Shown here: piece by piece, positions 5,600 through 54,867 of the stretch | Layout of the letters: each line of letters starts with the position of its first letter | Position numbering within the stretch: position 1 is the stretch's first letter | Assembly: GCA_038064975.1 (NCBI GenBank) | Contig: JBBTRX010000002.1 | Coordinates: 64,880 to 128,879 of the forward strand | Direction of reading: 5' to 3' | Length of the DNA stretch: 64,000 nucleotides | Source of the DNA: Patescibacteria group bacterium | Lineage (GTDB): Bacteria; Patescibacteriota; Minisyncoccia; UBA6257; 1-14-0-10-40-38 | Notes under the pieces: model-generated | What the model was told of the DNA's origin: nothing | What the model saw: only the letters and a program-made list of their open reading frames with translations | Databases searched by the model: none | Program-made: the position numbers and the translations under genes

Positions 5600-7078
5600 T
5601 TACTTAACAAAATATTTCTTCTTGATCTCCTCATCGATGCGATGCTGCGCAGCGGATGCACTTTCTTTTGCCTTTCGTGCAAAATCCTCAAGCTCCTTAT
5701 CGGTCATCTTGCCCAATTCCTGAATTCTCTTTTCCAACACCTTTTTAGTATTGTATTTTGGATCTTCCAAAACTTCTTCCAAAAGCACCGCAAGAATTTT
5801 TCCAATCCGCGGTCCAGGAGACATCTTAAGGACGCGCATCACGTCTTCTCCATTCGCCTTCAACATCTTCGGGCTTACTGGATCTTTCTGTACTTTCTCA
5901 ATCATCGCGCGCAGATAGCGTAATCGATACGGTTGAGCCTTGGGCACACCGGATCCGATGCGATCCGCTTCGCGAAGTTTTAAAAGCGCATCTACATTGT
6001 CTTTACCAACACGCGCAATAAGCCGGCGTACACCCGCAAGAGTTACCGCTTCTGGATCGTATACAAACATATGCTCGCGCACTAAGAGAGCTACAGTCTC
6101 CGTAAGCGTTTTTGAGAAACGGAGGCGATCCATAATAGTTGCCGTCATCCGTTCGCCAACAACTTGATGTCCGTAAAAGGTAGAGTCCGGTCCATCCCCT
6201 TTTTTTGAACGCGGCTTTCCAACGTCATGAAAAAGTGACGCAAGGCGGATATGGAGCGGAAACCGTTCTGCTACCGCGTATTCCAATGATCGAAGATTAT
6301 GTTCAAAGACAGTATAGATATGATGCTTGTTTTGCGTTACGCTGATCCCCTCTTCAATTTCAGGAGCGATATGAATGAGAAGTTTGTGTGCGAGAAGCAT
6401 ACGCACACCCTCTGCAGCACGGTCGGTCAGCATGAGTTTTGTAAACTCATCGCGTATACGTTCCTTGGAAACATATGCCAAAAGCCCGCTCTGTTTTGTA
6501 ATCGCTTGTGCGGTCTTTTCTTCGATCGCAAATCCAAGCTGCGCACTAAACCGAATCGCCCGCAAAAGACGAAGAGCGTCTTCTTCAAATCGCTGCTCAG
6601 CCTTTCCTACGGCGCGAATAATTTTTTTCTTTAAATCTTCCTGTCCGTGATAAGGATCAACAATCAACTCTCTACTTGCATCGGTTATTTTTAATGCCAT
6701 CGCATTCACTGTAAAATCTCTGCGCGAGAGATCTTCTTCTATTGTAGAAGCGAAAGTTACCTCGTCTGGGTGACGCTTGTCACTATATTTCCCTTCAATA
6801 CGAAATGTCGTAACTTCAATTACTTTTAGTTTTGGATCTTCCGAATCCGTTTTTACTCCCACGGTGCCAAATTCATTTTCATATACTGAATCTGAGAATA
6901 ACTTTTGAATTTCTTCTGGCTTTGCATTCGTTGCGACGTCCCAGTCACTCGGACCTTCCGCAGGAGAATTCTCCATCATAATGTCCCGAACGCATCCGCC
7001 CACAAGATACGCATCAAAACCGCCCTCGTTTAAGCGTTCGGCGATCATTTTTACCTCTTTTGGGATGCGGCTTTTCAT
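5600..7078 (-). CDS. cca: CCA-adding tRNA nucleotidyltransferase with HD domain
   Basis: Pol-beta-like nucleotidyltransferase N-terminus (GGCVRD) plus a C-terminal HD domain (HDVGK). Confidence 0.8.
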   Translation of the reverse strand: MKSRIPKEVKMIAERLNEGGFDAYLVGGCVRDIMMENSPAEGPSDWDVATNAKPEEIQKLFSDSVYENEFGTVGVKTDSEDPKLKVIEVTTFRIEGKYSDKRHPDEVTFASTIEEDLSRRDFTVNAMALKITDASRELIVDPYHGQEDLKKKIIRAVGKAEQRFEEDALRLLRAIRFSAQLGFAIEEKTAQAITKQSGLLAYVSKERIRDEFTKLMLTDRAAEGVRMLLAHKLLIHIAPEIEEGISVTQNKHHIYTVFEHNLRSLEYAVAERFPLHIRLASLFHDVGKPRSKKGDGPDSTFYGHQVVGERMTATIMDRLRFSKTLTETVALLVREHMFVYDPEAVTLAGVRRLIARVGKDNVDALLKLREADRIGSGVPKAQPYRLRYLRAMIEKVQKDPVSPKMLKANGEDVMRVLKMSPGPRIGKILAVLLEEVLEDPKYNTKKVLEKRIQELGKMTDKELEDFARKAKESASAAQHRIDEEIKKKYFVK

Positions 7079-7194: not shown

Positions 7195-7674
7195 CTACTG
7201 ATTCTTAATCTCCAATTTTCTTGCTTTTGCCCGATTTCGTTTAGGAAGCTTTATTTTTAAAACTCCGTTTTTGATCGTTGCCTCTGCGCCTTCAGGATCA
7301 ACTTCTTCCGGCAAAGAAACTGAACGAGCGAACTTTCCCCAATAGCATTCATGGTAAACATAATCTTCGTGACGTACGTCATGCTCCCGCTCTCGCTTTC
7401 CTCGGATCGTAATCCCATCCGCAGTAATCACGACATCAATATCTTCAGGATCAACTCCGGCAATCGGCGACTCAACGATAACGTCTCCCCCTTTGTTATA
7501 TACATCAATCGTAAGCTGCCCCTCATCTTCACCGATATGCGGATCAGAAGTCACATCTATTTCCGTTTTTACTTTTGTTGCCGACGCGCGCGTAAGACCA
7601 ATATCAAAAGGCGCCGGAGGTATTTCGGAGCTCGCACGTAATTCTTCTAAAAATTTTCTTGTTTCGTCGCTCAT
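7195..7674 (-). CDS. Hsp20/alpha-crystallin family small heat-shock protein
   Basis: Alpha-crystallin domain with GVLKIKLPK near the C-terminus. Confidence 0.8.
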   Translation of the reverse strand: MSDETRKFLEELRASSEIPPAPFDIGLTRASATKVKTEIDVTSDPHIGEDEGQLTIDVYNKGGDVIVESPIAGVDPEDIDVVITADGITIRGKREREHDVRHEDYVYHECYWGKFARSVSLPEEVDPEGAEATIKNGVLKIKLPKRNRAKARKLEIKNQ

Positions 7675-7680
7675 GTTGTA

Positions 7681-8397
7681 TTACGCGTCTTCTTTTTTTA
7701 ATTTTTCAAAATCATTGAGCAGGAAGAAAGCGAGGATGACCACAAAGAGAATCGCGATACTCGCAGGTCCAGACATAATTATAAGTTTATTAAAGATTGC
7801 ATGCAATACAGTCGCAAGCCCCAGACCGGCAAAAAGAATATGAAATTCACTCTTATGAACGAGTAAAAATTCTCCCTTGCTCCGTATGAACGCGTGTGCC
7901 CAATAATAGCCAACAATGCCGGACGCAAGCGTATGCAAAAGAGTTGCACCGATTGCGCGGAGTGTGATTGCCTCAAATATCGCGATATTAAATACCGTAC
8001 CGTTCGCGACATTGATGACGGATGCTACGTTTTCCACCGCGGCAAAGCCAAGTCCTGCAACAATCATATAAATCATCGCGTCTAACGGCTCATCAAATTC
8101 CCGCCGCTTATGAATAAAAAGCAGAACAGTAAAAAATTTTGTGAGTTCTTCCGTAAACGCGAGAAAAACGAACGCCGTAAAGCTATGCCCGTCTATACCC
8201 GCACTCATAATGGTCCTGCTCAAAAAAAGCTGGATGGGAATTAGCGCGAGCGTCATGAGCCCGCTTACAAGAAACGTAAAGAGAATCAGCCGCTTCGGTT
8301 CCGGATGCTTATAATCTTCCCGCAAATAAAAGAGGAGCCAAACAAAACTTGGGATGAGTCCGAGAAATATCAATGTCGTGTTAACGAGAACCGGCAT
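7681..8397 (-). CDS. PrsW-family intramembrane protease
   Basis: Multi-TM protein with an EExxK motif (TEELTKFF) and an FxxxE..H..N arrangement. Confidence 0.55.
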   Translation of the reverse strand: MPVLVNTTLIFLGLIPSFVWLLFYLREDYKHPEPKRLILFTFLVSGLMTLALIPIQLFLSRTIMSAGIDGHSFTAFVFLAFTEELTKFFTVLLFIHKRREFDEPLDAMIYMIVAGLGFAAVENVASVINVANGTVFNIAIFEAITLRAIGATLLHTLASGIVGYYWAHAFIRSKGEFLLVHKSEFHILFAGLGLATVLHAIFNKLIIMSGPASIAILFVVILAFFLLNDFEKLKKEDA

Positions 8398-8418: not shown

Positions 8419-11181
8419 TTACCACGCCTCCACCATTAAAAATGATTTCTGTTTTTCCCCAGCGAAGAGTTTTTGATATACCGCCTCCGTAACAAAAGGC
8501 ATAAAGGGATGGAGAAGTTTTATACATCCCAAGAAAATATCTTTTAGCATAGCAAGCGCCGCAGCTTTTTCCTGACTGTTTCCATTCTGGAGAGCAGGCT
8601 TTACTTGTTCAATAACAATGTCCGCAAACGTGTGCCATATATAGTGATAGCTTTCATTGGCCGCCTCGTGTAGTTCAAATGCCTCAATTTTCTCCGTAAC
8701 GAGTTTCTTAATATCGTTAAATCCGTCGTAATACGCTTGATATTCCTTCGGCATCTTTACTGACCGAGAAAGAGTTGGATCGTCATACATAGAAATAAAA
8801 CGTGCGATATTCCAAATCTTGGTCGCAAAGTTTCGATATCCGCGGATTTTGTCTTCAGAAAGTTTTATATCGTTTCCCGGCGCGGCACCCACAATAAGCG
8901 AAAGACGCGTCGCATCAGCTCCGTATTTATCCGCCATCTCTAATGGATCAATGCCATTTCCAAGTGATTTAGACATCTTTCTTCCCTTTTCATCACGCAC
9001 AAGCCCATGGAGATATACCGTCTTAAAGGGAACATCACCAATAAGAAATCCGGTCATAAGAATCATGCGCGCAATCCAGAAAAATAAAATATCGTATCCT
9101 GTTTCCAAAACACTTGTCGGATGAAATCCTTTTAAGTCTGCCGTTTTTTCGGGCCATCCGAGAGTTGAGAGCGTCCACAGCCCGGAAGAGAACCACGTGT
9201 CCAACGTGTCGGAGTCTTGGAGAAAAAGATGGTTACCGCATTTTTTACATTCCTCTAAAATATCGAATTGAATCGTTTCAGTGTTTTTTAGTGCAGATCC
9301 TGACAACGCCTGTTCTGGTGTCCAATTGTTAATCCTCTTCATAAGCATGCGGATTGTTCCGCCATGTGTCATGATGACAACGTTTTTGTGAGCATGCTTC
9401 TTTTTGTGACGCTCAAATGCCTCCACTACCCGATCTTCGAGTTGTTTATAGCTTTCGTCGTTTTCAATATTTATGTCATATCCAAACCTATCCTGATATT
9501 TCGCGATCATTTCTTCTTTTAGCATTCCCTCATATCCCCCATGATTTCTTTCGCGAAAACCTTTTTCATATATAATTTCTGCTCCGGTTACTTCGTGTAT
9601 TATTTCTGCAGTTTCTTTCGCGCGTTTAAGATCCGAACTTATAATGAGATCAATATTTTGATTTTTCAGCGCATGAGCCATTTCCCGCGCCTGTTCTCTT
9701 CCTTTTTCATTTAAGGAAGTATCCAGCCAGCCCTGTTGTCTTCCTTCTTTATTAAAATCAGTTTCTCCATGCCGAGCAAAAAACCATTTCCCCTTTCTTA
9801 GGGGGTTAATTTTTTCGTCTTTACAGCTAGTGCAGTACCACGCCGGAATCCGATGCCCATACCAAAGTTGGCGCGAGATGCACCAGTCGCGAAGATTTTC
9901 TATCCAATGGAAATAGGTCTTATCAAAATGTTCGGGAATGATTTTAATCTGCCCGCTCTTCACTACCTGAAGCATCATTTCTTTAAGCGTCACCATCTCC
10001 CCTTTCTTAATGCCTTGCAGCTTATCCGTTTTCGCTTCGAATTTTTTATTCACGTCCACAAACCACTGACGCATAATTTGCGGCTCAATAATTCCCCCAC
10101 CCCGTGTTGAAACAGTAACGCGATGCGCGTATTCCTCATCAACTTTCACGAGCAATTTTTTTTCTTTTAATTTCTCAACAATAGCAGGACGGGCTTTCGT
10201 GATATGCATTCCCGCAAATTCCCCGGCAATGGGGAGCAGTTTCCCTTTAAGATCAATAATTTGTTCTTTATCCAGGTTATGTCGTTCCGCGATTTCAAAA
10301 TCCATCGCATCGTGCCAGGGCGTAATCGTCATCACGCCAGTTCCGAATTCCGGATCAGCGGCCTCATCTTTAATAATCGTCGCCGTTATTCTTCCGTTGA
10401 TCCATTCAACTTCAAGTGTTTCGCCGTGTTTATATTTCGCATACCGTTCATCGTTCGGATGCATAACAACGTATTTATCTCCGAATTTCGTCTCCGGCCG
10501 GGCAGTACCGATAACAAAGGGGCCGTACTGTATATAATAGAAGACGCTTTTTTCATCCTTCCATTCCACCTCGTCATCAGAAACCGTGGTTTGCAGTTTC
10601 GGATCCCAATTCACGATTCTATCACCGCGATAGATGAGTCCGGCCTCGTGCATTTCTTTAAACGCAGTTTTGACCGCAAGACTTCGCGATTCATCAAGAG
10701 TAAACGCTTCGCGCGACCAATCTAAAGACGCTCCTAATCGTTTCATCTGATGCACGATAGTGTCATGACTTGCGCTCGCAAATTCTTCCACCTGTTTTAA
10801 AAATGTCTCGCGCCCCAGATCATGACGGGTTTTCTTTTCTTTTTTATAGAGCTCCTTCTCCACTTTTTCCTGCGTTGCAATTGCGGCATGGTCCGTACCA
10901 GGAATCCACAAGGTCTTAGCCCCACTCATACGCCGGTAACGGATAATAATGTCTTCTACCGCAATCATAGCTGCGTGTCCCATATGGAGCGTCCCCGTTA
11001 CGTTCGGCGGAGGAAGCACAATAGAGAAAGCTTCTTTATGCTTCCCCGGAAGTTTGTCCGGATTAAAAAAACCGGATTCTTCCCAGTTCCGATAAATAGC
11101 ATCTTCATGCGCTTTCGGGTCGTATGTTTTCTCGAATTCGGAATTCATATATATACTGCTTACTTTGTGTTCCTTCATCAT
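8419..11181 (-). CDS. valS: valine--tRNA ligase carrying an inserted histidine-phosphatase (PGAM-like) domain
   Basis: PPPNVTGTLHMGHA and KMSKSLGN motifs identify ValRS. About 190 aa are inserted between HRIPAWY and DTLDTWFSSGLW. The insert contains a split zinc knuckle (CTSC...CKKC), an RHGETDF motif and a later THGG motif. Confidence 0.9.
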   Translation of the reverse strand: MMKEHKVSSIYMNSEFEKTYDPKAHEDAIYRNWEESGFFNPDKLPGKHKEAFSIVLPPPNVTGTLHMGHAAMIAVEDIIIRYRRMSGAKTLWIPGTDHAAIATQEKVEKELYKKEKKTRHDLGRETFLKQVEEFASASHDTIVHQMKRLGASLDWSREAFTLDESRSLAVKTAFKEMHEAGLIYRGDRIVNWDPKLQTTVSDDEVEWKDEKSVFYYIQYGPFVIGTARPETKFGDKYVVMHPNDERYAKYKHGETLEVEWINGRITATIIKDEAADPEFGTGVMTITPWHDAMDFEIAERHNLDKEQIIDLKGKLLPIAGEFAGMHITKARPAIVEKLKEKKLLVKVDEEYAHRVTVSTRGGGIIEPQIMRQWFVDVNKKFEAKTDKLQGIKKGEMVTLKEMMLQVVKSGQIKIIPEHFDKTYFHWIENLRDWCISRQLWYGHRIPAWYCTSCKDEKINPLRKGKWFFARHGETDFNKEGRQQGWLDTSLNEKGREQAREMAHALKNQNIDLIISSDLKRAKETAEIIHEVTGAEIIYEKGFRERNHGGYEGMLKEEMIAKYQDRFGYDINIENDESYKQLEDRVVEAFERHKKKHAHKNVVIMTHGGTIRMLMKRINNWTPEQALSGSALKNTETIQFDILEECKKCGNHLFLQDSDTLDTWFSSGLWTLSTLGWPEKTADLKGFHPTSVLETGYDILFFWIARMILMTGFLIGDVPFKTVYLHGLVRDEKGRKMSKSLGNGIDPLEMADKYGADATRLSLIVGAAPGNDIKLSEDKIRGYRNFATKIWNIARFISMYDDPTLSRSVKMPKEYQAYYDGFNDIKKLVTEKIEAFELHEAANESYHYIWHTFADIVIEQVKPALQNGNSQEKAAALAMLKDIFLGCIKLLHPFMPFVTEAVYQKLFAGEKQKSFLMVEAW

Positions 11182-34483: not shown

Positions 34484-36040
34484 ATGAGGCGCAAATTAGT
34501 TCTTGTTATTCTTGACGGATGGGGAATCGGAAACAATGACGGGTCCAATCCCCTCTATGTCTCCCAACCGCCCAATATTATGGCGATAAAAAGGAGCTAT
34601 CTTGCGGGAGCACTCCAATCTTCGGGCATTGCCGTAGGGCTTCCCTGGGAAGAAGAAGGTAACAGCGAAGTCGGACACCTTACGATCGGTGCAGGCAAAG
34701 TCATTTACCAACACTTTCCCCGCATCACAATGAATATCCAGAGCGGAGACTTTTTCAAAAACAAGGCATTTGTGGGAGCATGTGGCCATGTAAAACAGTA
34801 TGGAAGCGCGCTCCATATTGCAGGATCACTTACCCAAGGGAATGTGCACGCTTCTTTAGAGCACGTACGTGCGCTTATCCGCCTTGCGAAAGAGCAAGGT
34901 GTAAGTAAGGTATATTTTCATTTCTTTACCGACGGCAAAGACAGCCCGCCGAAATCCGCACCCGCACTCTTAGGCGAAGTACGAACATATGCCAAAGAAC
35001 AAGGAGTGGGAGAGGTTGCGAGTATTGCCGGAAGATTTTATGCCTTAGACCGAGACGAACACTGGGATAGGACAGAGAAGGCATATCGCGTAATGACGGG
35101 CGAAGGACTAAAGAGCGTAAGTGCCGAGGCACGCATTCAAGAAGCGTACGCCAAAGGATTAGGAGACGAATTTATAGATCCAGCATCGGTTCAAGACCCA
35201 CCGCACACAATTGCAGAAAATGATGCACTTATTTTCTTTGATTTCCGCGAAGATAGTATTCGGCAAATTGCGAGCGCGTTCGGCGTTCAGAATTTTTCAA
35301 AATTTCCCGTGCGCCCGATACCGAATCTGTATCTCGCGACCATGACGCAGTACACCGAAAAGATACAGGCGCATATTGCCTTTCCCGTGGAGTCGGTAGA
35401 AAATCCGTTAGGCAAAGTACTCTCGGACAATGGACTTATCCAACTCCGCATCGCAGAGACGGAAAAATACGCTCACGTTACTTTTTTCTTCAACGCATAC
35501 CGTGAACAGCCGTTTCCGAATGAATATCGCGTCCTCATCCCCTCTCGGAATGTTTCCCGCGCGGATCTCCACCCAGACATGATGGCGAACGAAATCGGAA
35601 CGAGAATTCTTGAGTCCATCGAAGAGGGTGGGTTTGATGTTATCATCGCGAATTTCGCGAACCCTGATGCAACGGCACATACGGGAAATTTTGAAGCAGC
35701 GCTCTCCGCGATCAAAACCGTTGACGAAGAGATTGGACGCATCGCGAAAGCATGTAAAGAACAGAATGCAATTCTCATGGTTACCTCCGATCATGGAAAC
35801 GTTGAACGCATGACAAACCCGCTTACTGGTGCAATAGAAACGAAACATGACGCAAATATTGTGCCTATATATATTGTAGGCAACGGATTTGAGCGGCATA
35901 AGAGCGACATGGAAGCCGCGATGATAGAGAGCGAGGCGGTTGGCATTCTTTCCGATGTTGCACCGACCATATTGGAACTCCTGGAAATCCCTAAGCCCGC
36001 CGAGATGACTGGCGAAAGTCTGCTAAAAGTGCTTCGATAG
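34484..36040 (+). CDS. gpmI: 2,3-bisphosphoglycerate-independent phosphoglycerate mutase
   Basis: LVILDGWGIG N-terminus and the metal-binding motifs of iPGM. Confidence 0.85.
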   Translation: MRRKLVLVILDGWGIGNNDGSNPLYVSQPPNIMAIKRSYLAGALQSSGIAVGLPWEEEGNSEVGHLTIGAGKVIYQHFPRITMNIQSGDFFKNKAFVGACGHVKQYGSALHIAGSLTQGNVHASLEHVRALIRLAKEQGVSKVYFHFFTDGKDSPPKSAPALLGEVRTYAKEQGVGEVASIAGRFYALDRDEHWDRTEKAYRVMTGEGLKSVSAEARIQEAYAKGLGDEFIDPASVQDPPHTIAENDALIFFDFREDSIRQIASAFGVQNFSKFPVRPIPNLYLATMTQYTEKIQAHIAFPVESVENPLGKVLSDNGLIQLRIAETEKYAHVTFFFNAYREQPFPNEYRVLIPSRNVSRADLHPDMMANEIGTRILESIEEGGFDVIIANFANPDATAHTGNFEAALSAIKTVDEEIGRIAKACKEQNAILMVTSDHGNVERMTNPLTGAIETKHDANIVPIYIVGNGFERHKSDMEAAMIESEAVGILSDVAPTILELLEIPKPAEMTGESLLKVLR

Positions 36041-40290: not shown

Positions 40291-43200
40291 CTATTTTGCT
40301 CGGCGGATACCGACAACGATCGTTTCCTGATCAAGTTTTGTTTCTTGTTTTGCATCAAATGGCCGAGTCTCCATCCATGAGGCAGCGGCAAAATCCATTT
40401 CCTTCGCGCCAACCATACGAAGAAGCGTATCTTTATTCTTTTCAATCTGCTCCTGTAGTAATACAGACGCGGCAATCGTGATCATTACCGTATCTTTAAT
40501 GTCATATCCGGCATCTTGGCGAAGTTTTTGAATCATACGAGAAAGTTCGCGCATGAGCCCCTCGGCGCGCAATTCCGGAGTAATCGTGGCGTCCAATACA
40601 GTGTCCGCCCCTTGATCCTTTGAAAATACAATGTGCTTAACATTCACTTCGTCAGCTAAAATCGCGAGCAAAGCAGAATCTTTCACGGAAAGGATTTTTG
40701 TAACAATAGAGAGAGTGGAGAGCGGCTGGCGGATTTTTATTCCCAACTTTTCCCGTTCTGCGAGTGCAAGGTTCGCAAGGCGGCGCACTTCTTCCATGGC
40801 TTGGATCATTTTTTTATCGCTCACGCTCATAGTAATTTTTGGCCACAGAGCGATATGTACAGAATGCGATCCGGTCTTCTCCTTCTTCGTCGCGACAGCT
40901 TGGTATAGTCCTTCGCTGAAAAACGGAGCGAAAGGCGCCATATATTTTGAGAGCGTTACTAGAACAGTCTGAAGTGTTTTTGGCGAAACATTTTTTCGGC
41001 TCCTGCGAATATACCAGCGAGAAAGATCGTCGAGAAAAGTCTCCAGCGCCTTTGCTGCCGAATATACGTCGTATACATCCAGCTTCTTTGAAACCGTAAG
41101 TCCTACTTCGTTCAGACGGGCAAGAATCCACTGATCAAGTGCGGGAAGCGGATTGTGCTTTTCATGCTCGTACATTTTAGAAAACGCGAATGAGTTGTAC
41201 GTAATCAAGAAAACTTTACGGAACACCGTCTTCAAATCATCTTCGTTAAACCGCTTTGGCTCTCCTGGATCATTTAACGTAAAGAAATACCAGCGCACTG
41301 CATCAACGCCATGCGTCCCAATAAGCTGCCATGGATCAATAACATTGCCTTTGGATTTAGACATCTTCGCCCCATGCTTATCCAAAATATGCCCCAGAGA
41401 GATTACATTCTTGTATGGTTCTTTTTTGCCGAGAAGCGTTGAAACGGCAAGGAGGGTATAGAACCAACCGCGCGTCTGATCAACCGCTTCAGTAATATAA
41501 TCCGCCGGGAACTGTTTTTTACCATCCACCATCCCTTTGTGTTCAAACGGATAATGCCATGACGCAAAAGGCATTGCTCCGGAATCAAACCATACGTCCG
41601 CGACGTCAGGAATGCGTCTCATAGTTTTCCCGCAATCAGGACACTGTAATACTATTTCATCAATAAATGGCCGATGAGGGTCAATGGTCCCCGTCTCGTT
41701 ATAGGGAAGGTTCATAACTGTACGACTGATCCATTTTCCAGGCAGGATATACTCCGCTTCTTTAATCTCTGCCGTAAGGTTCATGCCATCCAAAATTGCA
41801 CTCAAAACCCATAAAGGATCGCCGTGGCTCACAACCGCGATACGCTTGCCAGCGTACTGTGCACGGACATCTTTCATAAAACTCGTAACACGCCGGGCAA
41901 GATCAATGAGCGTTTCCCCTCCTTCGGGCGTTTTCGTGAACCGTTCCTCAAAGCTATTAAAGAATGCATGGTAATCATCTACGGGAGCCCGATTAAAAAC
42001 TCCGACATTAATTTCCCGTATGCGCTCGTCGTACACAATTTCCGCTCCCGTTGCTTCACTTACAATTTCCGCCGTTTCTTTAGCACGAGCGAAAGGCGAT
42101 GAGATAATAAGATCAATCTTTTTCTTTTTTAAATCTGCACCAGCTTTCTTTGCTTGTGTTTTCCCTTTAGCCGTAAGGAGCGAAGGACGCTCGTCATCCC
42201 CTGCCATTTGATTCTTCGTATTATGTTCCGCCTCGCCGTGGCGGATCAAGAAAAATTCCGCTTGAGGAAGCGCATGTTTTTCTAAGTCTTCAAACGATCC
42301 CGCAACAAACGTATGTACACATATCTCGCCCTTCCAAATTGGAAGCGGCGTTCCCCAATACCGGTTGCGGGATATTGCCCAATCTTTCAGTTCCTTTAAC
42401 CACTCACCAAACCTTCCCTCGCGCACATGGCTTGGGATCCAATTCACGCGAGCATTCTCTGCAATAAGCTGACTCTTCAATTCACTCATGCGGATGAACC
42501 ATGAATTCCGTGCGTAATAGATAAGAGCAGTCCCGCATCTCCAGCAATGCGGATACTCGTGGGTATACTGTTCGGTTTTTAAGAGCAGATTTTTTGACTG
42601 CAGATATTCAATAATTGTCGTTTCCGTCAATTTTGCTTTTACAAAACGTCCCGCAAGATCTTTTACTTCGTCAGTGAACTTTCCTTCCTCCGTTACGGTA
42701 TGTTTCTGTGGCAAGCCAATTTTGACGCCAAGTTCATAATCGTCTTCTCCGTACATGACTGCGGTATGCACAACACCCGTGCCATCTTCAGTTGTTACAA
42801 AATCAGCCGCATATACGCGGTGCGATTTCTCACTCCGGAGCGATGGAATATCAAAAAGCGGCTCGTATTCCAATTCTATTAAGTCTTTTCCCTTCACGGT
42901 TACAACAACCTCTCCCAATACCTCTTTAAGTGAGGAGTCGTGAGCAACTACAGCATATTCTCCGTTTTGGGAGCGCACGACATAGGAGATATTTTTCCCT
43001 ACCGCGAGAGCGACGTTGCCCGGCAAAGTCCACGGCGTTGTAGTCCACGAGAGAATATAGGTATTGTCTGTTGTTTTCCAATTCCCTATTTTTTGGCCCG
43101 GCTTTAATTTGAACTTTACATAGACTGACGTATCAGTCACTTCCTTGTATCCTTGGGCAAGCTCGTGAGAAGAGAGCGCGGTTCCGCATCGCGTGCACCA

Positions 43201-43734
43201 CGGAATAATCTTATGCCCTTCGTAGAGTAGTTTTTTCTTCCAGACTTCTTTAAATATCCAAAATAAAGATTCAATATATGATGAATCCGAGGTTACATAC
43301 GCGTTCTCCCTATCCAACCAAAATCCAATGCGTTCGGTAAAGTTTTCCCACTCCGTGCGATATCTCCAAACGGAAGCGCGCGCTTTTTCATTAAACTGCG
43401 CGATGCCATACCGTTCTATATCCTGTTTGTTCCGAAGTCCCAGTTCTTTTTCCACTTCAATTTCAACCGGAAGCCCATGAGTGTCCCATCCTGCTCTCCG
43501 TAAAATAGAATGCCCGCGCATCGTTTTGTAGCGCAAAATAATATCCTTAAACGCACGGACAAGAATATGATGCGTGCCGGGACGGCCATTTGCAGTCGGA
43601 GGGCCTTCAAAAAAACGGAATGGCTTCCCCCGCTTTCGTGCAGCGGTCGTTTTTGGAAAGATTTGATTTTCTTTCCAGAATTTCAGAACTTGCTCCTCAA
43701 GTTCCGGTAAATTGAATTTATCTTTTTCAAGCAT
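40291..43734 (-). CDS. ileS: isoleucine--tRNA ligase carrying an inserted histidine-phosphatase (PGAM-like) domain
   Basis: PTANGRPGTHH and KMSKSKGN motifs identify IleRS. About 230 aa are inserted between WGTPLPIW and DVWFDSG. The insert contains RHGEAEHN, IDLIISSPFARAKETAE, SHGD, and a CPDC zinc knuckle. Confidence 0.9.
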   Translation of the reverse strand: MLEKDKFNLPELEEQVLKFWKENQIFPKTTAARKRGKPFRFFEGPPTANGRPGTHHILVRAFKDIILRYKTMRGHSILRRAGWDTHGLPVEIEVEKELGLRNKQDIERYGIAQFNEKARASVWRYRTEWENFTERIGFWLDRENAYVTSDSSYIESLFWIFKEVWKKKLLYEGHKIIPWCTRCGTALSSHELAQGYKEVTDTSVYVKFKLKPGQKIGNWKTTDNTYILSWTTTPWTLPGNVALAVGKNISYVVRSQNGEYAVVAHDSSLKEVLGEVVVTVKGKDLIELEYEPLFDIPSLRSEKSHRVYAADFVTTEDGTGVVHTAVMYGEDDYELGVKIGLPQKHTVTEEGKFTDEVKDLAGRFVKAKLTETTIIEYLQSKNLLLKTEQYTHEYPHCWRCGTALIYYARNSWFIRMSELKSQLIAENARVNWIPSHVREGRFGEWLKELKDWAISRNRYWGTPLPIWKGEICVHTFVAGSFEDLEKHALPQAEFFLIRHGEAEHNTKNQMAGDDERPSLLTAKGKTQAKKAGADLKKKKIDLIISSPFARAKETAEIVSEATGAEIVYDERIREINVGVFNRAPVDDYHAFFNSFEERFTKTPEGGETLIDLARRVTSFMKDVRAQYAGKRIAVVSHGDPLWVLSAILDGMNLTAEIKEAEYILPGKWISRTVMNLPYNETGTIDPHRPFIDEIVLQCPDCGKTMRRIPDVADVWFDSGAMPFASWHYPFEHKGMVDGKKQFPADYITEAVDQTRGWFYTLLAVSTLLGKKEPYKNVISLGHILDKHGAKMSKSKGNVIDPWQLIGTHGVDAVRWYFFTLNDPGEPKRFNEDDLKTVFRKVFLITYNSFAFSKMYEHEKHNPLPALDQWILARLNEVGLTVSKKLDVYDVYSAAKALETFLDDLSRWYIRRSRKNVSPKTLQTVLVTLSKYMAPFAPFFSEGLYQAVATKKEKTGSHSVHIALWPKITMSVSDKKMIQAMEEVRRLANLALAEREKLGIKIRQPLSTLSIVTKILSVKDSALLAILADEVNVKHIVFSKDQGADTVLDATITPELRAEGLMRELSRMIQKLRQDAGYDIKDTVMITIAASVLLQEQIEKNKDTLLRMVGAKEMDFAAASWMETRPFDAKQETKLDQETIVVGIRRAK

Positions 43735-43747
43735 ACGAGTTTTGGTT

Positions 43748-45460
43748 TTACATTGTTTCTACGGTTTGAATTCCTAAAAGAGTAAGACCAGTATTAAGGG
43801 TTTCTGCAGCGGAAGCAACGAGTGAGATGCGTGAACGTCGCATTTCCTTTTCTGCTTTTAAGACCGGGATATTTTCATAAAATGAATTTACGGTTTTCGC
43901 GAGCTCGTAGAGATATTCCGCAAGGTAATGAGGAAAGAATGTCTCCCGCACCTTATCTAAAACTCCCGGGAACCGCATAACCATAATGGCGAGATTACGC
44001 TCCGCATCGTTTGTGAATACTACTTTACCGCGAGAAAACCTCCCCGCCTTGCGGAGGATGCTTTTGATACGAGCATAGGAATAGAGCAAGTATGGAGCGC
44101 TATTCCCTTCAAACGACAGCATAGCATCCCAGCGGAACGTAATATCACTCTGCCGATTCTGGGAAAGATCGTTATATTTCAATGCTGCAATGCCGACAGC
44201 TTTCGCTATTTTTTCCCGCTTCCGTTTCGTGATATCAGCTCGCTTTTCATCAACAATCTTTTGCGCTCGATCTACCGCCTCGTGAATTACTTCAAGAAGC
44301 GCGACGTGTCTGCCCGCGCGCGTGGAAAGCTTTTTCATATCTTCTGCGAGCACGAGACCAAACTTTACGTGCATGAGTTGCATAGACCCTACAAACCCTA
44401 ACTTCTCTGCAGATCGAAATAATTGTTCAAAGTGCAAGCTTTGCCCGTTATCTACAACATAGAGAACGGTATCCGCTTTGAATTTTTCTCTGCGATATTT
44501 AATCGCGGCAAGATCAGTCGTGGAATATAAAAACGCCTCATCGCTTTTCTGAATAACAAACGAAGGAATCCCCTCGTGCGGGATAATAACCGCTCCTTCG
44601 CTCCGCTCTGCGATTCCCCGATAGAGAGCTTCCTGCACTATTTCAGGAAGCATAGATTTATAAAAACTTTCTCCTAAGTAATAATCAAACGAAACGCCAA
44701 GCAGAGAGTATGCTTTTTTGAATTCAGCAAGACTGATTTTATAAAACAGTTTCCAAATCGCCGTGTTTTCGCGGTCTCCTTCTTGTAGTTTTTTTGTCTC
44801 TCTGCGCGCACTCTCTTCCAATTCAGGATTCTCTTTCATCCTCGCCGTATAATCTACATACAGCACCAGCAAATCTTCTATCTTTATATTTGATTTTTTA
44901 TTTTTGAGATTTGAGATTTCTTTGTATGCCGCGATCAAAACACCGAATTGCTTTCCCCAATCTCCTAAATGGTTATCGCCCACAGTTTTCCATCCTGAAA
45001 AGGCGAACACATTATAAAGCGCAGCTCCGATAATCGTGGAACGCAAATGCGCCACGCTCATCGGCTTTGCGATATTAGGATGCGAATAATCAATAACAAT
45101 CGTCTTTTTCTCATTCTTTGTGGGCTTGCCCGACCCAGCTCGAGAGGCGGGTCTGCCCCATTTCTTTCCTGCGCTAAGCACGCCCTTCATTCCTTCTTCT
45201 AGTGCAGAATCTGAAAGCCAAAAATTAATAAATCCGGGACGAGCAACCTCAACCCGCGAGAGAAGATGCATCCCTTTTTCCCTCGCGTCCTTTGCAATCT
45301 GTTCCGCAATCGTAAGCGGTGCTTCACCGCGCACGCTAGCAAGTTTCATCGCAACGTTTGTAGCATAATGACCAAAATCAGGACGCGCGGATGGCTCCAC
45401 CGAAAAATCAATTGATTCAGGGATTAGTGATTTCAAAAAAAGATTCAACTGTTCTTCCAT
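43748..45460 (-). CDS. argS: arginine--tRNA ligase
   Basis: Class I Rossmann core, and the C-terminal anticodon-binding DALR domain of ArgRS. Confidence 0.85.
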   Translation of the reverse strand: MEEQLNLFLKSLIPESIDFSVEPSARPDFGHYATNVAMKLASVRGEAPLTIAEQIAKDAREKGMHLLSRVEVARPGFINFWLSDSALEEGMKGVLSAGKKWGRPASRAGSGKPTKNEKKTIVIDYSHPNIAKPMSVAHLRSTIIGAALYNVFAFSGWKTVGDNHLGDWGKQFGVLIAAYKEISNLKNKKSNIKIEDLLVLYVDYTARMKENPELEESARRETKKLQEGDRENTAIWKLFYKISLAEFKKAYSLLGVSFDYYLGESFYKSMLPEIVQEALYRGIAERSEGAVIIPHEGIPSFVIQKSDEAFLYSTTDLAAIKYRREKFKADTVLYVVDNGQSLHFEQLFRSAEKLGFVGSMQLMHVKFGLVLAEDMKKLSTRAGRHVALLEVIHEAVDRAQKIVDEKRADITKRKREKIAKAVGIAALKYNDLSQNRQSDITFRWDAMLSFEGNSAPYLLYSYARIKSILRKAGRFSRGKVVFTNDAERNLAIMVMRFPGVLDKVRETFFPHYLAEYLYELAKTVNSFYENIPVLKAEKEMRRSRISLVASAAETLNTGLTLLGIQTVETM

Positions 45461-45472
45461 ATATATGAATGT

Positions 45473-46156
45473 TTATGCCGTCTGCAAAGCTCGATTTTGC
45501 CATGCGCAAAACTGGCATGCGCTTCCGATATCAGGAATATCACGTTCAATTGTTTTCACTGCATCGCGAAATGCTTTCCGTGCGTCATCAGCAGATGTTT
45601 TTACTTCCTTTACTTCAACGGTGAAATTAACTTGCCCGCCCGGCTGAAGCTCTTTGGGAATAAAATAAATAAGATAGGCGTACCCTGGTTGTGGCAGATT
45701 ATTTTCTTCAAGGAGTAAAGAGTAGCAATTCAGCTGATTTTTATAGAATCCTTCCCCTCCCTCCTTAAGCTCAAAGCCTCGCGTTTTATAATCCACCGGA
45801 ATATAGCCGTCTTCGTTTACGATACAGTCATCGAGCGCCCCCACCATAACAGCGTCCAAAGATTTTTCATAAAAGCTAAGTCCGCCCTTCCATCCACGCC
45901 ACCGGTTCAAAATTTCAGAGTCCGCAAAAAGCTTACCTTTAACCTGCCCGTCAATTTCCGGAGGAAGCTTACCGACGGCCCGATAGCGATCAAAATATTT
46001 CTTTATTACGATATCCATGCCGCTCGGGAGCGAAGGAAAAGGCCCGCGAGGGCGTGGACGCTCTGCTCGATATTCCAGCCAAAAGCACCGGGGACAATCC
46101 AGAAATACATTAAGAGAGGATGGAGAAAGTCGCAATTTGCCGCTTGATGTAGTCAT
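45473..46156 (-). CDS. PD-(D/E)XK nuclease with Fe-S cysteines (Cas4/AddB-like)
   Basis: An N-terminal Cys (LDCPRCFWLEY), a D..(D/E)YK core (IPVDYKT) and a C-terminal C..CxxC. There are no cas genes nearby. Confidence 0.55.
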   Translation of the reverse strand: MTTSSGKLRLSPSSLNVFLDCPRCFWLEYRAERPRPRGPFPSLPSGMDIVIKKYFDRYRAVGKLPPEIDGQVKGKLFADSEILNRWRGWKGGLSFYEKSLDAVMVGALDDCIVNEDGYIPVDYKTRGFELKEGGEGFYKNQLNCYSLLLEENNLPQPGYAYLIYFIPKELQPGGQVNFTVEVKEVKTSADDARKAFRDAVKTIERDIPDIGSACQFCAWQNRALQTA

Positions 46157-46207: not shown

Positions 46208-46681
46208 TTGATTTTCGGTATACTTCCAGAGATGAATACCCTATCAGAAAACAAACGAGCCCGCTTTGATTATGAGGTGTTAGATACCTACGAAGCAGGG
46301 ATCGAGCTTAAGGGCTTTGAAGTAAAGTCCGTAAAGAACGGCAGGATGAATCTTGCCGGTACGTTTGTAGTACCTAAAGGGAATGAGCTCTATCTCTTAA
46401 ACGCCGACATTTCACCCTATCAGGCAAACAATACGCCGAAAGACTATGATTCCAAACGTTCCCGTAGAATACTTTTGAAACACGCGGAGATCAAAGAACT
46501 CATCGGGAAAATCACTTCCACAAGCTTGACATTAGTCCCATTAAGAGTGTATAATAAAGGTCGCCTCGTGAAAGTTGAGATTGCGCTCGTAAAACCGAAA
46601 AAGAAGTATGACAAGCGCGAAACTACAAAAAAACGCGAAGCGAAACGGATGATCGGGAGAACATTGAAAAGGGAACAATAA
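46208..46681 (+). CDS. smpB: SsrA-binding protein SmpB
   Basis: RARFDYEVLDTYEAGIELKGFEVKS N-terminus and a basic C-terminal tail. Confidence 0.85.
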   Translation: MIFGILPEMNTLSENKRARFDYEVLDTYEAGIELKGFEVKSVKNGRMNLAGTFVVPKGNELYLLNADISPYQANNTPKDYDSKRSRRILLKHAEIKELIGKITSTSLTLVPLRVYNKGRLVKVEIALVKPKKKYDKRETTKKREAKRMIGRTLKREQ

Positions 46682-52394: not shown

Positions 52395-52655
52395 TTAACT
52401 GGAAAAAGAAACGCCTTCCTTTTTGAGGATGCGTTTCTTTTTTGCTGTTCCCCACGCGAAACCACCCGGATTTCCATCCGCGCGAATAACGCGATGACAA
52501 GGAACTTTAGGATCCCGATTTTTGTTCAGAATGTTCCCCACCGCTCGGTAGGCTCGGGGATTCCCCGCGATGCGCGCTATTTCTTGGTACGTGCGCGTTT
52601 CGCCTCGGGGGATTCTTTGGACCGCCTGATATACCTTTCTCCTGAAGGAAGTCAT
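52395..52655 (-). CDS. methylated-DNA--protein-cysteine methyltransferase, C-terminal (DNA-binding/active-site) domain only
   Basis: PCHRV active-site motif and the YQEIARIAGNPRAYRAVG helix-turn-helix. Confidence 0.7.
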   Translation of the reverse strand: MTSFRRKVYQAVQRIPRGETRTYQEIARIAGNPRAYRAVGNILNKNRDPKVPCHRVIRADGNPGGFAWGTAKKKRILKKEGVSFSS

Positions 52656-53094
52656 AAGCCCGATCTAATATTTGCAAACTATCTTTGTATCTTGCCAGTA
52701 TTCGTTTCGCTTCCACATAGGTGAACCATCCATATCCCTCGTGCTCATCTGAAACCGCGATTTGCACGATACTAGTTTCCGCAAGGTAGAGAATGACTAC
52801 TTTAAAGATTTTTTCCTTGCCTCGACGATAGGAAAACCGCTCACGCGCTTTGAATCCCCGAACGAAGTGGAGTTCAGAAGCTTTGAGTCCTGTTTCTTCC
52901 TGGACTTCGCGAAGTGCCGTTTGCCAGCTCCGCTCTTCTGATTCCATCTTTCCCTTCGCGAAATTCCAATAGTTTCCGCCGTGATAGAGAATGAGAAATT
53001 TTGGGCCCTCCTTTGTTCTCCGAAAGACGATGATACCGGCGGATATAATCCGCTGCATGGAAAGTAGTTTACCACGCCTAAGGTTTTGGTTCAA
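52507..53094 (-). CDS. NUDIX hydrolase with low-complexity C-terminal tail
   Basis: Nudix box GKMESEERSWQTALREVQEETGL. The last 49 or so codons overlap the MGMT gene in another frame. Confidence 0.6.
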   Translation of the reverse strand: MNQNLRRGKLLSMQRIISAGIIVFRRTKEGPKFLILYHGGNYWNFAKGKMESEERSWQTALREVQEETGLKASELHFVRGFKARERFSYRRGKEKIFKVVILYLAETSIVQIAVSDEHEGYGWFTYVEAKRILARYKDSLQILDRAYDFLQEKGISGGPKNPPRRNAHVPRNSAHRGESPSLPSGGEHSEQKSGS

Positions 53095-54867
53095 TTAAGC
53101 CCGATTTTTCAGTAATTTCAACATTTGATCAACTGGATACGTATTAATAATACCCCCCTTTGTCACCCAACCTCTCCTTGCCTGTGAGATACCAAATTCA
53201 AGTACAGAAAAATGGCTTACGCTATGTGCGTCGGAATCAATAGACATTTTTACACCCGCTTTCACACATTTTCTGATATGATCGTCTTTCAAATCTAACC
53301 GATCAGGAAATGCATCTATCTCTAAAATAGTCCCCGTCTTTTTCGCTACCGCAATAATCTCTTCCATATCTATAGGATACGCCGGTCGCTTCCCTATCCT
53401 ACGCCCCGTCGGATGAAATAAAATATCGGCATGCGGATTATGCATTGCTTTTACTACACGCGCTGTCTGCTCTTCAATCGGAAGATTGAAATAGGAATGC
53501 ACGGAGATACCAACGACATCCAACTTCGCGAGCACGTCGTCCGAAATATCCAGCGATCCGTCTTTTAAAATATCACATTCGGAACCCGCAAGAATTCTGA
53601 ATTTCTTTTTTTCTTTCTGCAAATCCCCGTTAATTTTTCTAATCTCTTCAATTTGCTCTAAAATCTTTTTCTCATCCAATCCCCCCGTCATCGCAAGGCG
53701 TTTGGTATGGTCAGTAATCACGATGTATTCAAGTCCTGCTTTCATTGCGGCATCCGCCATCGCGCGGATAGAATCCGCCCCGTCCGTCCAATTAGTCTGG
53801 GTTTGCAAATCCCCTTTCAAATCGCCGTAATCAATAAGCTTCGGAAGCTTCTTTTCTTCGGCAAGTTCAACTTCACCCGCGTCTTCACGCATTTCCGGAG
53901 GAATGTATTCCAATCCAAGTGCTGAATAAATTTCTTCTTCAGTTTTCCCCGCTACCAACTTCCATTCATTGTCGTTAGTTGTTAGTTTTTTGTTGTTAGT
54001 TTTCTTATAGAGCCCATATTCATTAAGCTTCATACCCTTACTGATGGCGATTTTTCTCAAATGCACATTATGATCTTTTGATCCTGTAAAGTAATTTAAA
54101 GCCGCACCGTAGGACTCCGGTGGCACTACGCGGAGATCAGCATCAATGCCGGCTTTGAGCCGAACCATCGATTTCGTGGGTCCTTTGGCATAGACGCGCG
54201 CCACTTCCGGCATTGCAGTAAACGCATCCATCACGGTCTCTGCGTTCTTCGCGACAACAAGAATATCAATATCTCCTACAGTTTCTTTGCGCCTACGAAT
54301 TGAACCTGCAACCGCGAAATGTTCAACCGCTTTCACTTTACGTAATCGCTCTTCAATGCTTCGCACTTCGGGCACGATATTCCCCAAGAGCATTCTTCCG
54401 CCTGATGCACGCACGAATTCAATCCCTTTCAAAATATTCTCTTCACTCTTTTTTCCAAATCCTTCCAAAACTCCAATCGTTCCGGCTTTTGCAGCTTTTT
54501 CTAAATCATCCAGATTTTTAATCTTGAGCTTCTCGTACAACCGTTTTATTTTTTTCGGGCCCAACCCTTCAACTTTTGTAAGTGTCGCAAGATCAACAGG
54601 CGTTTCGAGTTTTAACTGTTCGTAATACGCGAGCTTTCCAGTTTTTATAAGTTCTTCAACATGATCAGCAATAGATGCCCCAACACCAGGAATGGTTAAA
54701 ATCGCGGCTCGTCCGCCTCTTTTGTAGAGACCAGAAATTTCTTCATCAAGCGCAAGCACGCTTTCGGCTACCTTCTCATATGCGCGTGGCTTAAACGGAA
54801 TATCCTCCATCGCTAAATATTCGGCAATGTTGGTCAATATTTCTGCGATTTCCTTATTGGTAAGCAT
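53095..54867 (-). CDS. polX: DNA polymerase X family protein with PHP domain
   Basis: Pol-beta-like HhH and palm N-terminus, and a C-terminal PHP (His-rich) domain. Confidence 0.8.
   Translation of the reverse strand: MLTNKEIAEILTNIAEYLAMEDIPFKPRAYEKVAESVLALDEEISGLYKRGGRAAILTIPGVGASIADHVEELIKTGKLAYYEQLKLETPVDLATLTKVEGLGPKKIKRLYEKLKIKNLDDLEKAAKAGTIGVLEGFGKKSEENILKGIEFVRASGGRMLLGNIVPEVRSIEERLRKVKAVEHFAVAGSIRRRKETVGDIDILVVAKNAETVMDAFTAMPEVARVYAKGPTKSMVRLKAGIDADLRVVPPESYGAALNYFTGSKDHNVHLRKIAISKGMKLNEYGLYKKTNNKKLTTNDNEWKLVAGKTEEEIYSALGLEYIPPEMREDAGEVELAEEKKLPKLIDYGDLKGDLQTQTNWTDGADSIRAMADAAMKAGLEYIVITDHTKRLAMTGGLDEKKILEQIEEIRKINGDLQKEKKKFRILAGSECDILKDGSLDISDDVLAKLDVVGISVHSYFNLPIEEQTARVVKAMHNPHADILFHPTGRRIGKRPAYPIDMEEIIAVAKKTGTILEIDAFPDRLDLKDDHIRKCVKAGVKMSIDSDAHSVSHFSVLEFGISQARRGWVTKGGIINTYPVDQMLKLLKNRA

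Follow-up and report, generated by a model that had tools for sequence, protein, structure and literature searches.

Aminoacyl-tRNA synthetases are highly conserved, and their accessory domains are usually terminal. The cyanobacterial class I synthetases, valyl- and isoleucyl-tRNA synthetase (ValRS and IleRS) among them, have repeatedly captured the CAAD domain from the stand-alone protein Curt1, and did so at more than one insertion point within a single phylum (PMC4893482). Within IleRS itself, a G/AXHH version of the class I signature has been shown experimentally to be the source of mupirocin hyper-resistance in type 2 enzymes (PMC10485003), and connective peptide 3 (CP3) is known from the Thermus enzyme as a subdomain with a zinc-binding motif (PMC7191050). 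Here we describe a 64,000-nucleotide stretch of a Patescibacteria group bacterium (assembly GCA_038064975.1, contig JBBTRX010000002.1, positions 64,880 to 128,879; hereafter the window), one of the ultra-small bacteria of the candidate phyla radiation (CPR), in which ileS and valS each code for a synthetase with a histidine phosphatase domain nested in CP3. Hence an enzyme domain with a predicted intact active site lies inside the catalytic core of two synthetases. All coordinates of these genes and their parts are collected in Table 1.

A histidine phosphatase domain interrupts CP3 of a type 2 IleRS

The ileS product scored 846.5 bits against the ileS equivalog model TIGR00392 (cut-off 621.4), and its Pfam architecture comprises tRNA-synt_1, Anticodon_1, the C-terminal domain DUF5915 and His_Phos_1. 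Besides the KMSKS loop and a non-canonical class I signature, a motif scan located the editing motifs TTTPWT (residue 231) and GTGVVH (residue 318). The AlphaFold2 model of the whole protein, computed with 104 homologues, reached a predicted local distance difference test score (pLDDT) of 92.9 and a predicted template-modelling (TM) score (pTM) of 0.87, with no segment below 50 and with pLDDT above 90 in the linkers entering and leaving the insert. The top PDB matches of this model were the type 2 enzymes 8C8W and 8C8V (P. megaterium IleRS2) and the T. thermophilus enzyme 1ILE, on which it superimposed with a TM-score of 0.92 (normalised to 1ILE). Judged by its score, its motifs and its editing and anticodon-binding domains, the host looks like a functional type 2 IleRS, and a signature of the G/AXHH type seems to be usual for this CPR clade. 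The NCBI record of the protein (MEK7611905.1, on a contig of 381,697 bp) reads 'class I tRNA ligase family protein [Patescibacteria group bacterium]', and many fused homologues are likewise named merely 'class I tRNA ligase family protein', despite the ileS score of 846 obtained for the window IleRS.

The position of the insert was read from the alignment with 1ILE, in which residues 6-489 of the window protein correspond to chain residues 7-481 and residues 684-999 to chain residues 488-821. About 194 residues thus stand in place of a six-residue loop between the two halves of the CP3 zinc knuckle, a place at which canonical IleRS and ValRS, including the T. thermophilus enzymes, have a loop of 6-13 residues. 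The Pfam profile PF00133 is broken at position 264 in the window IleRS and at position 256 in the window ValRS, and the two insertion sites are therefore equivalent. This bears out the initial annotation of the window, made from the sequence alone, which had placed a phosphatase-like insertion in a structurally equivalent loop of both enzymes. The same annotation had described a CxxC knuckle behind the insert. The CPDC motif is indeed present, but it is the second half of the native CP3 knuckle, whose first half is degenerate in IleRS: it reads GEICVH, with C472 as its sole cysteine, leaving G469, C472, possibly H474, C698 and C701 at the ligand positions, that is, three cysteines and a possible histidine. 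Among 64 fused IleRS from species-level genomes, all four zinc cysteines (positions 469, 472, 698 and 701) are kept in 37-38 and lost together in the rest, and the insert may have dispensed with the need for the zinc site. In the literature searched we found no description of contacts between CP3 and tRNA.

The nested domain carries a complete phosphatase active site

Both inserts scored far above the gathering score of PF00300 (21.7 bits), with 127.8 bits for the IleRS insert and 167.4 bits for the ValRS insert, confirming that the two enzymes carry a phosphatase of the same family. In the IleRS model the insert has pLDDT values above 90, and the order of its strands and helices is that of the phosphoglycerate-mutase-like alpha/beta fold. 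When the IleRS was compared with the PDB using phmmer, PspA (2.9e-16) and PhoE (about 1e-13) were retrieved over residues 493-654, and the model of the ValRS insert superimposed on PhoE (1H2E) with a root-mean-square deviation of 1.7 A and a TM-score of 0.80, and on PspA (4IJ5/4IJ6) with TM-scores of 0.80-0.82. The solved structures nearest to the inserts, namely PspA 4IJ5, PhoE 1H2E, GpgP and the riboflavin-pathway HFP 9MMH, are all small-molecule phosphatases.

The catalytic set of the family, consisting of the arginine and histidine of the RHG motif, a second arginine, a glutamate as proton donor and a second histidine, corresponds to R498, H499, R550, E574 and H637 and is fully present in the window IleRS. 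R498, H499, R550, E607 and H637 occur in 64 of the 64 fused IleRS, and E574 in 62, the other two having aspartate; positions 550-556 belonged to the pattern with which these loci had been searched, and their conservation in this set is accordingly biased. The first five residues were invariant again, and E574 was present in at least 90%, in 104 sequences gathered with the whole protein, and the conservation of the catalytic residues is thus not an effect of the search pattern. Across 77 homologues the set is also intact in ValRS inserts, in free forms with a zinc knuckle (see below) and in nearly all tandem copies. The profile matches and conserved residues show the insert to be a complete branch-1 histidine phosphatase with a predicted intact active site, in agreement with the intact phosphatase module of the initial annotation. 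Its label 'PGAM-like' holds at superfamily level only, since the cut-offs of the cofactor-dependent phosphoglycerate mutase (dPGM) models (pgm_1, dPGM_arch and GpmA) were not reached: dPGM_arch gave 95.6 bits for the IleRS insert and 70.2 bits for the ValRS insert (cut-off 225), and pgm_1 gave 70 bits for the ValRS insert (cut-off 81.7) and no match for the IleRS insert at E <= 1e-12. Against the CobC model TIGR03162 (cut-off 162.9) the IleRS and ValRS inserts scored 93.5 and 116.7 bits, and against the PspA model NF045917 (cut-off 350) they scored 86.6 and 107.8 bits.

ValRS of the same window has a nested phosphatase of its own

The valS product exceeded the cut-offs of both TIGR00422 (819.9 bits, cut-off 612.1) and NF004349 (874.2 bits, cut-off 704), and the motif scan found HMGH and KMSKS. 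Its insert replaces residues 423-437 of T. thermophilus ValRS and lies between the knuckle pairs CTSC and CKKC, and the insert together with the knuckle was modelled by AlphaFold2 with a pLDDT of 93.0. By Pfam, neither the methionyl-tRNA synthetase (3125-4594) nor the arginyl-tRNA synthetase of the window contains the domain, in agreement with the initial annotation, and a six-frame scan with hidden Markov models detected no third His_Phos domain in the 64 kb beyond the IleRS and ValRS copies.

The fused IleRS is the standard form in a large part of the CPR

A scan of GTDB with one genome per species, the kind of check across related genomes that the initial annotation had called for, returned at least 80 loci, of which, among the matches listed, about 70 encode a fused IleRS with the domain at the same site. 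These proteins are 1100-1240 residues long, with 63 ORFs (open reading frames) above 1000 residues and the rest truncated where a contig stops. Many Patescibacteria/CPR lineages are represented, including Paceibacterota, Sungiibacteriota and Yanofsky-, Lipton-, Yonath-, Jorgensen-, Wildermuth-, Taylor-, Nomura-, Vogel- and Zambryskibacteria. All of the best 120 homologues of the full-length IleRS carry both PF00133 and PF00300. The same in-frame architecture was found in more than 180 independent assemblies, which disposes of misassembly as an explanation and agrees with the continuous reading frames noted at the outset. We also considered that the fusion might be nearly unique, as searches with the bare insert returned mostly free proteins and two fused fragments; this was a word-index artefact, given that the genome scan and the search with the whole protein yielded hundreds of fused proteins. 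Taken together, these data show that the fused form is not a one-off, and that a large Paceibacteria/Parcubacteria radiation within the CPR has it as its standard IleRS.

For ValRS, an exhaustive search with the ValRS junction as query gave about 45 fused sequences, comprising full-length proteins and fragments. When 35 long fused representatives were classified with NCBIfam, 25 were ValRS, nine were IleRS and one remained below threshold; none of the 35 was a leucyl-tRNA synthetase (LeuRS), and this genome encodes its LeuRS outside the window. The domain-bearing IleRS and ValRS thus span a major bacterial radiation and offer a testable entry into CPR-specific translation biology. In one locus (L070:4582-8061, CAZDWR010000005) the fused IleRS is spread over three consecutive ORFs, an N-terminal part, the phosphatase (5968-6720) and a C-terminal part, which reflects either frameshift errors or a truly split gene.

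The phosphatase occupies several sites and occurs in several copies

Using flanking motifs and PF00133 profile coordinates to place the insertions, we found at least four sites in the class Ia body across lineages. In the majority, both window enzymes included, the domain sits in CP3 (profile position about 256-264). It lies in CP2 after the QWF motif (about 198) in P0176, P0178, P0186 and P0198, after DTWFSS...TLGWP (about 318) in P0207 and P0245, and at the junction of the catalytic and anticodon-binding domains (about 412) in P0284, P0195 and P0232. Two to four phosphatase copies are present in the ValRS P0176, P0178, P0186 and P0189 and in the IleRS L082:3718-8217, P0185, P0197, P0202 and P0221, which reach up to 1538 residues. 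In P0176 a single copy in CP2 is accompanied by at least two, and an additional truncated one, in CP3. The CP3 of L082, P0197, P0202 and P0221 holds two copies in tandem, and the two copies of P0185 are found in CP3 and downstream of the DxWFDS motif. This multiplicity of sites and copies suggests repeated selection for tethering a phosphatase to IleRS or ValRS and argues against the need for one exact geometry.

These observations also bear on the idea that the insert is a regulatory or structural module, either a ligand sensor (for example of glycolytic phosphometabolites via the phospho-histidine) or a scaffold that stabilises CP3, with turnover not under selection. We give this idea little credence. 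The incomplete retention of the CP3 zinc ligands (37-38 of 64) would fit it, in that the insert may have assumed the structural role of the knuckle, as would the rigid docking of the domain predicted by AlphaFold2 (pTM 0.87), the disappearance of catalytic residues from a few array copies and, by way of analogy, the unchanged kinetics of cyanobacterial ValRS on deletion of CAAD (PMC4893482). However, more than 200 sequences that share just 30-45% identity all keep the full catalytic set unchanged, which is hard to explain without catalysis, the varied insertion sites argue against a specific allosteric path, and the free form encoded in the operon, described below, cannot serve as a scaffold in the IleRS fold.

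The IleRS insert has a free counterpart between argS and ileS

The free proteins closest to the IleRS insert are P0002, P0004 and P0006 (40-47% identity), and the genes of two of them, P0004 and P0006 (40-41%), lie at the argS-ileS junction in genomes with an insert-less IleRS. In loci L085 and L086 the gene order is argS, a small ORF, a His_Phos gene (198 residues) and ileS (955 residues), with the phosphatase stop and the ileS start overlapping by 10 bp. In the Moranbacteria loci L087 and L088 it is argS, His_Phos (203 residues), NUDIX, an uncharacterised ORF and ileS (1035 residues). L067 and L076 likewise have argS, a free His_Phos gene and an insert-less ileS, and the partial locus L078 ends after argS and His_Phos. 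Among fused loci with room for an upstream gene, argS directly precedes ileS in 42 of 53, and smpB lies divergently upstream in the window as it does in L085 and L087, giving a shared SmpB-argS synteny. The free gene and the insert are a Rosetta-stone pair, fused in some genomes and neighbours in others.

In a ValRS-rooted tree built on 874 columns of the IleRS body without the insert, the unfused L085 and L067 were basal, whereas the unfused L087 and L076 nested within the fused clade in 100 of 100 replicates. These placements imply at least two transitions between the neighbour-gene and the CP3-insert state. Synteny and trees suggest that the IleRS-type domain is the same gene as the free ORF between argS and ileS in relatives, and the move may have gone in either direction. 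L076 itself (L076:8057-11506, JBBTWT010000041) has a normal CP3 knuckle without phosphatase, a NUDIX domain (residues 327-452, E = 6e-18) in the CP1/editing region of its IleRS and, just upstream of ileS, free genes for a NUDIX protein (7539-8051) and for a His_Phos protein (5959-6552).

The ValRS insert was probably captured independently

From the presence of the same module in the same loop of two paralogues, the initial annotation had concluded that it was either acquired before the paralogues diverged in this lineage or transferred from one synthetase to the other. IleRS and ValRS, however, had already separated before the last universal common ancestor, and their canonical members have only the short loop at this site. 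Between the two window inserts the identity is 30% (E = 7e-28); they share one nearly identical local block (IDLIISS..RAKETAEI..E.TGAEI.Y), and their common superfamily, their common CP3 loop and their coexistence in one genome would also suit that model. Nevertheless, each insert is closer to free proteins (40-48%) than to the other. The ValRS insert comes closest to fused ValRS (47-52%) and to free proteins of about 215 residues (P0046-P0053; 45-48%) that bear their own N- and C-terminal CxxC pairs. Mean identities over 187 aligned columns were 38% among IleRS inserts, 42% among window-type ValRS inserts, 42% between the latter and the free zinc-knuckle proteins, 33% between window-type ValRS inserts and other free phosphatases, and only 29% between window-type ValRS inserts and IleRS inserts.

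These group identity matrices and a reduced-taxon bootstrap superseded a neighbour-joining domain tree of 416 taxa. In the bootstrap, for which the free groups were defined after the fact, IleRS inserts formed a near-clade with their own free relatives in 73% of 300 replicates and ValRS inserts with the free zinc-knuckle proteins in 49%, and an exclusive grouping of IleRS and ValRS inserts was recovered in none of the 300. The phylogeny of inserts and free phosphatases that the initial annotation had asked for thus yields no exclusive clade of the two inserts, with deep nodes poorly supported. Since the IleRS type in addition has its own neighbour-gene counterpart, and the domain has been inserted independently at several other sites, we regard a single acquisition common to IleRS and ValRS, or a direct transfer between them, as highly improbable. 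We infer that the inserts of ValRS and IleRS are from different subfamilies and that each was captured on its own. The post hoc definition of the free groups and the near-zero deep bootstrap support of the 416-taxon tree, which permits a coarse reading only, count against this view; even so, recurrent independent capture appears to fit better than a shared origin, and with the domain tree so poorly resolved a very old transfer is the weaker possibility.

The free zinc-knuckle proteins are real separate genes that do not adjoin valS. They stop at '...CGGDLYE', where fused ValRS goes on with '...CG.DL[FY]EQDPDTLDTWFSS', and because the knuckle is native to ValRS they are best read as excised modules of CP3 plus phosphatase. 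One of them (P0050, L003:8001-8657) is encoded between rpsJ and rplC in the S10 operon, and another (P0048, L089:5001-5636) between a fused gene for glucose-6-phosphate and 6-phosphogluconate dehydrogenase (G6PD/6PGD) and the gene for glucose-6-phosphate isomerase (PGI).

Proposed function of the nested phosphatase

We lean towards reading the domain as an active PhoE/PspA-like phosphomonoesterase that has been selected for co-localisation with IleRS and ValRS. It would act as a phosphomonoesterase of the PhoE/PspA/CobC type, forming a phospho-histidine on H499 with E574 as the general acid, and would hydrolyse a phosphorylated compound whose removal helps these synthetases. Selection would act to keep the domain together with IleRS or ValRS, physically and in stoichiometry, without demanding an exact geometry with respect to the aminoacylation site. 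The substrate would most probably be a small phosphorylated metabolite or nucleotide. A small molecule is favoured by the small-molecule enzymes among the structural relatives, by the variable insertion geometry, by the free relative encoded between G6PD/6PGD and PGI, and by the charge of the inserts, which, taken as a proxy for RNA binding, shows no basic bias (median isoelectric point 6.2-7.3). A role as glycolytic mutase was considered and rejected, as a cofactor-independent phosphoglycerate mutase (iPGM) is encoded in the window (34484-36040). The independent captures, the retention of the gene beside ileS when unfused and the tandem amplification indicate that the phosphatase reaction is functionally coupled to aminoacylation.

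Several findings weigh against this reading. Both inserts remain below every curated NCBIfam phosphatase and mutase cut-off (CobC, PspA, GpmB and dPGM), and consequently no substrate can be transferred by homology. Three copies in ValRS arrays (the second domains of P0178 and P0189 and the first of P0186) are without some of the catalytic residues, from which it follows that catalysis is not needed in every copy. The context of the ValRS-type free relatives is inconsistent, comprising the S10 operon, the rpoA-L17 region, G6PD/PGI and Fic genes, so that it allows no functional inference. Finally, a small-molecule substrate provides no rationale for the restriction to IleRS and ValRS, with LeuRS represented by none of the 35 fused representatives.

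A different reading is that the nested phosphatase acts on a macromolecule, be it the bound tRNA, whose 3' end it would clear of a blocking phosphate or the remnant of a pyrophosphate, or its own synthetase after phosphorylation by a toxin kinase. We consider this doubtful. If it were true, a repair or immunity activity built into an aminoacyl-tRNA synthetase would be seen for the first time in the CPR IleRS and ValRS, and the recurrent capture, the multiple copies and the free forms linked in the operon would be traces of an arms race over translation.

In the first version, which we judge unlikely, the domain would heal tRNA acceptor ends in cis, stripping a 2'- or 3'-phosphate, or the last phosphate after trimming of a pyrophosphate, from the CCA end and so restoring a chargeable end. 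Such damage would come from nucleases or from pyrophosphorylation of the toxSAS type; toxSAS enzymes pyrophosphorylate tRNA CCA ends. All known insertion sites lie in or beside the catalytic body that binds the acceptor arm, and the free form is found amid the translation genes for SmpB, IF3, L20, ArgRS and IleRS, both of which speak for this version. A NUDIX gene adjoins ileS in L087, L076, L033 and L058, a NUDIX domain is nested in the L076 IleRS, and NUDIX and phosphatase together could trim pyrophosphate to phosphate and then to hydroxyl; kinases of the AAA_33/zeta type moreover flank ileS in L087. Yet a strict Nudix-box scan found only weak enrichment of NUDIX genes next to ileS, the association being occasional. 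Only two synthetases carry the domain, which would leave other tRNAs damaged, the inserts are not basic, their close structural relatives are all small-molecule enzymes, and the CCA-adding enzyme in the window has an HD domain of its own. To our knowledge, no branch-1 histidine phosphatase has polynucleotide 3'-phosphatase activity.

In the second version the domain would be a cis-acting protein phosphatase with its own synthetase, or a partner such as EF-Tu, as substrate, and would confer built-in resistance to kinase toxins of the HipA/HipT/Doc type, which inactivate class I synthetases and translation factors. The histidine phosphatase superfamily does include the protein phosphatases SixA, PGAM5 and Sts-1. 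A tether would work from several sites, multiple copies would raise the local concentration, Fic-domain genes flank one free relative and the zeta/AAA_33 kinases of L087 could be seen in the same light. Against this stand the closest sequence and structure matches, which are small-molecule enzymes and not SixA, PGAM5 or Sts, and the lack of any kinase gene consistently linked across the loci examined, and we find this version improbable.

Genes around ileS

Upstream of argS the window contains a gene of the PD-(D/E)XK nuclease family (45473-46156, minus strand), immediately adjacent to argS and on the strand shared with argS and ileS, and, divergent from it, smpB (46208-46681, plus strand). 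A NUDIX gene (52507-53094) directly follows a gene for a PolX-family polymerase with a PHP domain (53095-54867), both on the minus strand, and this PolX-NUDIX pair recurs in L085, indicating a conserved synteny in these CPR genomes. NUDIX genes also stand directly beside ileS in L087 (Moranbacteria, GCA_013336285.1), L033 and L058. Behind ileS in L087 come two AAA_33/zeta-toxin-like kinase genes, separated by a NUDIX gene.

Table 1. Synthetase genes of the window and their annotated parts. Coordinates of all parts were verified by translation; aa, amino acid residues; AF2, AlphaFold2; Tth, T. thermophilus.
Feature	Position	Strand	Basis
ileS, type 2 isoleucyl-tRNA synthetase with nested phosphatase, 1147 aa	40291..43734	-	continuous ORF, TIGR00392, Pfam, AF2
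IleRS class I signature motif, non-canonical GTHH, aa 53-56	43567..43578	-	motif scan; clade consensus GIHH
IleRS CP3 first half, aa 466-486 (IWKGEICVHTFVAGSFEDLEK), degenerate knuckle half (G469, C472, H474)	42277..42339	-	aligned to Tth IleRS WVCQACGKEEAIGSFQEL
IleRS inserted segment, aa 490-683, 194 aa	41686..42267	-	unmatched against 1ILE between chain residues 481 and 488
IleRS His_Phos_1 (PF00300) core, aa 495-654; catalytic R498, H499, R550, E574, E607, H637	41773..42252	-	Pfam E = 5.4e-37
IleRS CP3 second half, aa 684-712 (IDPHRPFIDEIVLQCPDCGKTMRRIPDVA), CPDC 698-701, runs into DVWFDSG	41599..41685	-	aligned to Tth IleRS 488-516
IleRS KMSKS loop, aa 790-794	41353..41367	-	motif scan, coordinates checked by translation
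argS, 13 bp upstream of ileS, same strand	43748..45460	-	Pfam tRNA-synt_1d/DALR_1
valS, valyl-tRNA synthetase with own nested phosphatase, 920 aa	8419..11181	-	valS equivalogs, Pfam
ValRS CP3 zinc-knuckle first pair CTSC, aa 450-453	9823..9834	-	motif scan, translation
ValRS insert, aa 457-643, with His_Phos_1 aa 467-641	9253..9813	-	Pfam E = 3.8e-49
ValRS CP3 zinc-knuckle second pair CKKC, aa 645-648	9238..9249	-	motif scan, translation

Comparison with known systems

Full-text searches of the literature yielded no account of IleRS or ValRS with a histidine phosphatase inside; recent papers on IleRS evolution mention neither the phosphatase insert nor CPR bacteria, and the same is true of AARS Online. 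The architecture therefore appears not to have been described previously, although the sequences are public and automatically annotated.

In fold and catalytic residues the inserts match the branch-1 phosphatases PhoE, PspA and CobC (PF00300; 1H2E, 4IJ5, 4PZ9, 9MMH). Those enzymes, however, are free-standing and act on small molecules, whereas the window domain is nested in a synthetase and scores below the equivalog cut-offs. A fusion of a CobC/PhoE-like phosphatase to a nucleic-acid enzyme is known from the bifunctional RNase H/acid phosphatase of the Rv2228c type (NF005567), whose model was consistently among the top NCBIfam matches of the inserts (88-91 bits, far under the cut-off of 326); in that protein the phosphatase and its RNase H partner are fused end to end, in contrast to the nested arrangement seen here.

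On the side of the host, the window enzyme is, like the type 2 IleRS with a G/AXHH signature (PMC10485003; 8C8W), an IleRS2, with GTHH in place of HxGH, but the G/AXHH enzymes described are without a phosphatase insert, none being mentioned in PMC10485003. An unrelated enzyme domain is also nested in the IleRS of the family NF040702 ('isoleucine--tRNA ligase, N-acetyltransferase domain-containing'). There it is a GNAT domain at another site, and the window IleRS is not a member of that family (304 bits, cut-off 1999). The NUDIX domain nested in the L076 IleRS differs from the window phosphatase in both family and site.

The cyanobacterial CAAD synthetases resemble the present case in evolutionary mode only, in that a domain with a stand-alone counterpart was captured repeatedly and independently. 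The Curt1/CAAD domain itself is absent from the window enzymes, as Pfam matched only synthetase families and His_Phos_1 (at E <= 0.01 for IleRS and E <= 1e-5 for ValRS). While CAAD is a membrane anchor located elsewhere in the protein, the domain described here has an enzyme fold with a predicted intact active site, lies mostly in CP3 and sometimes occurs in tandem.

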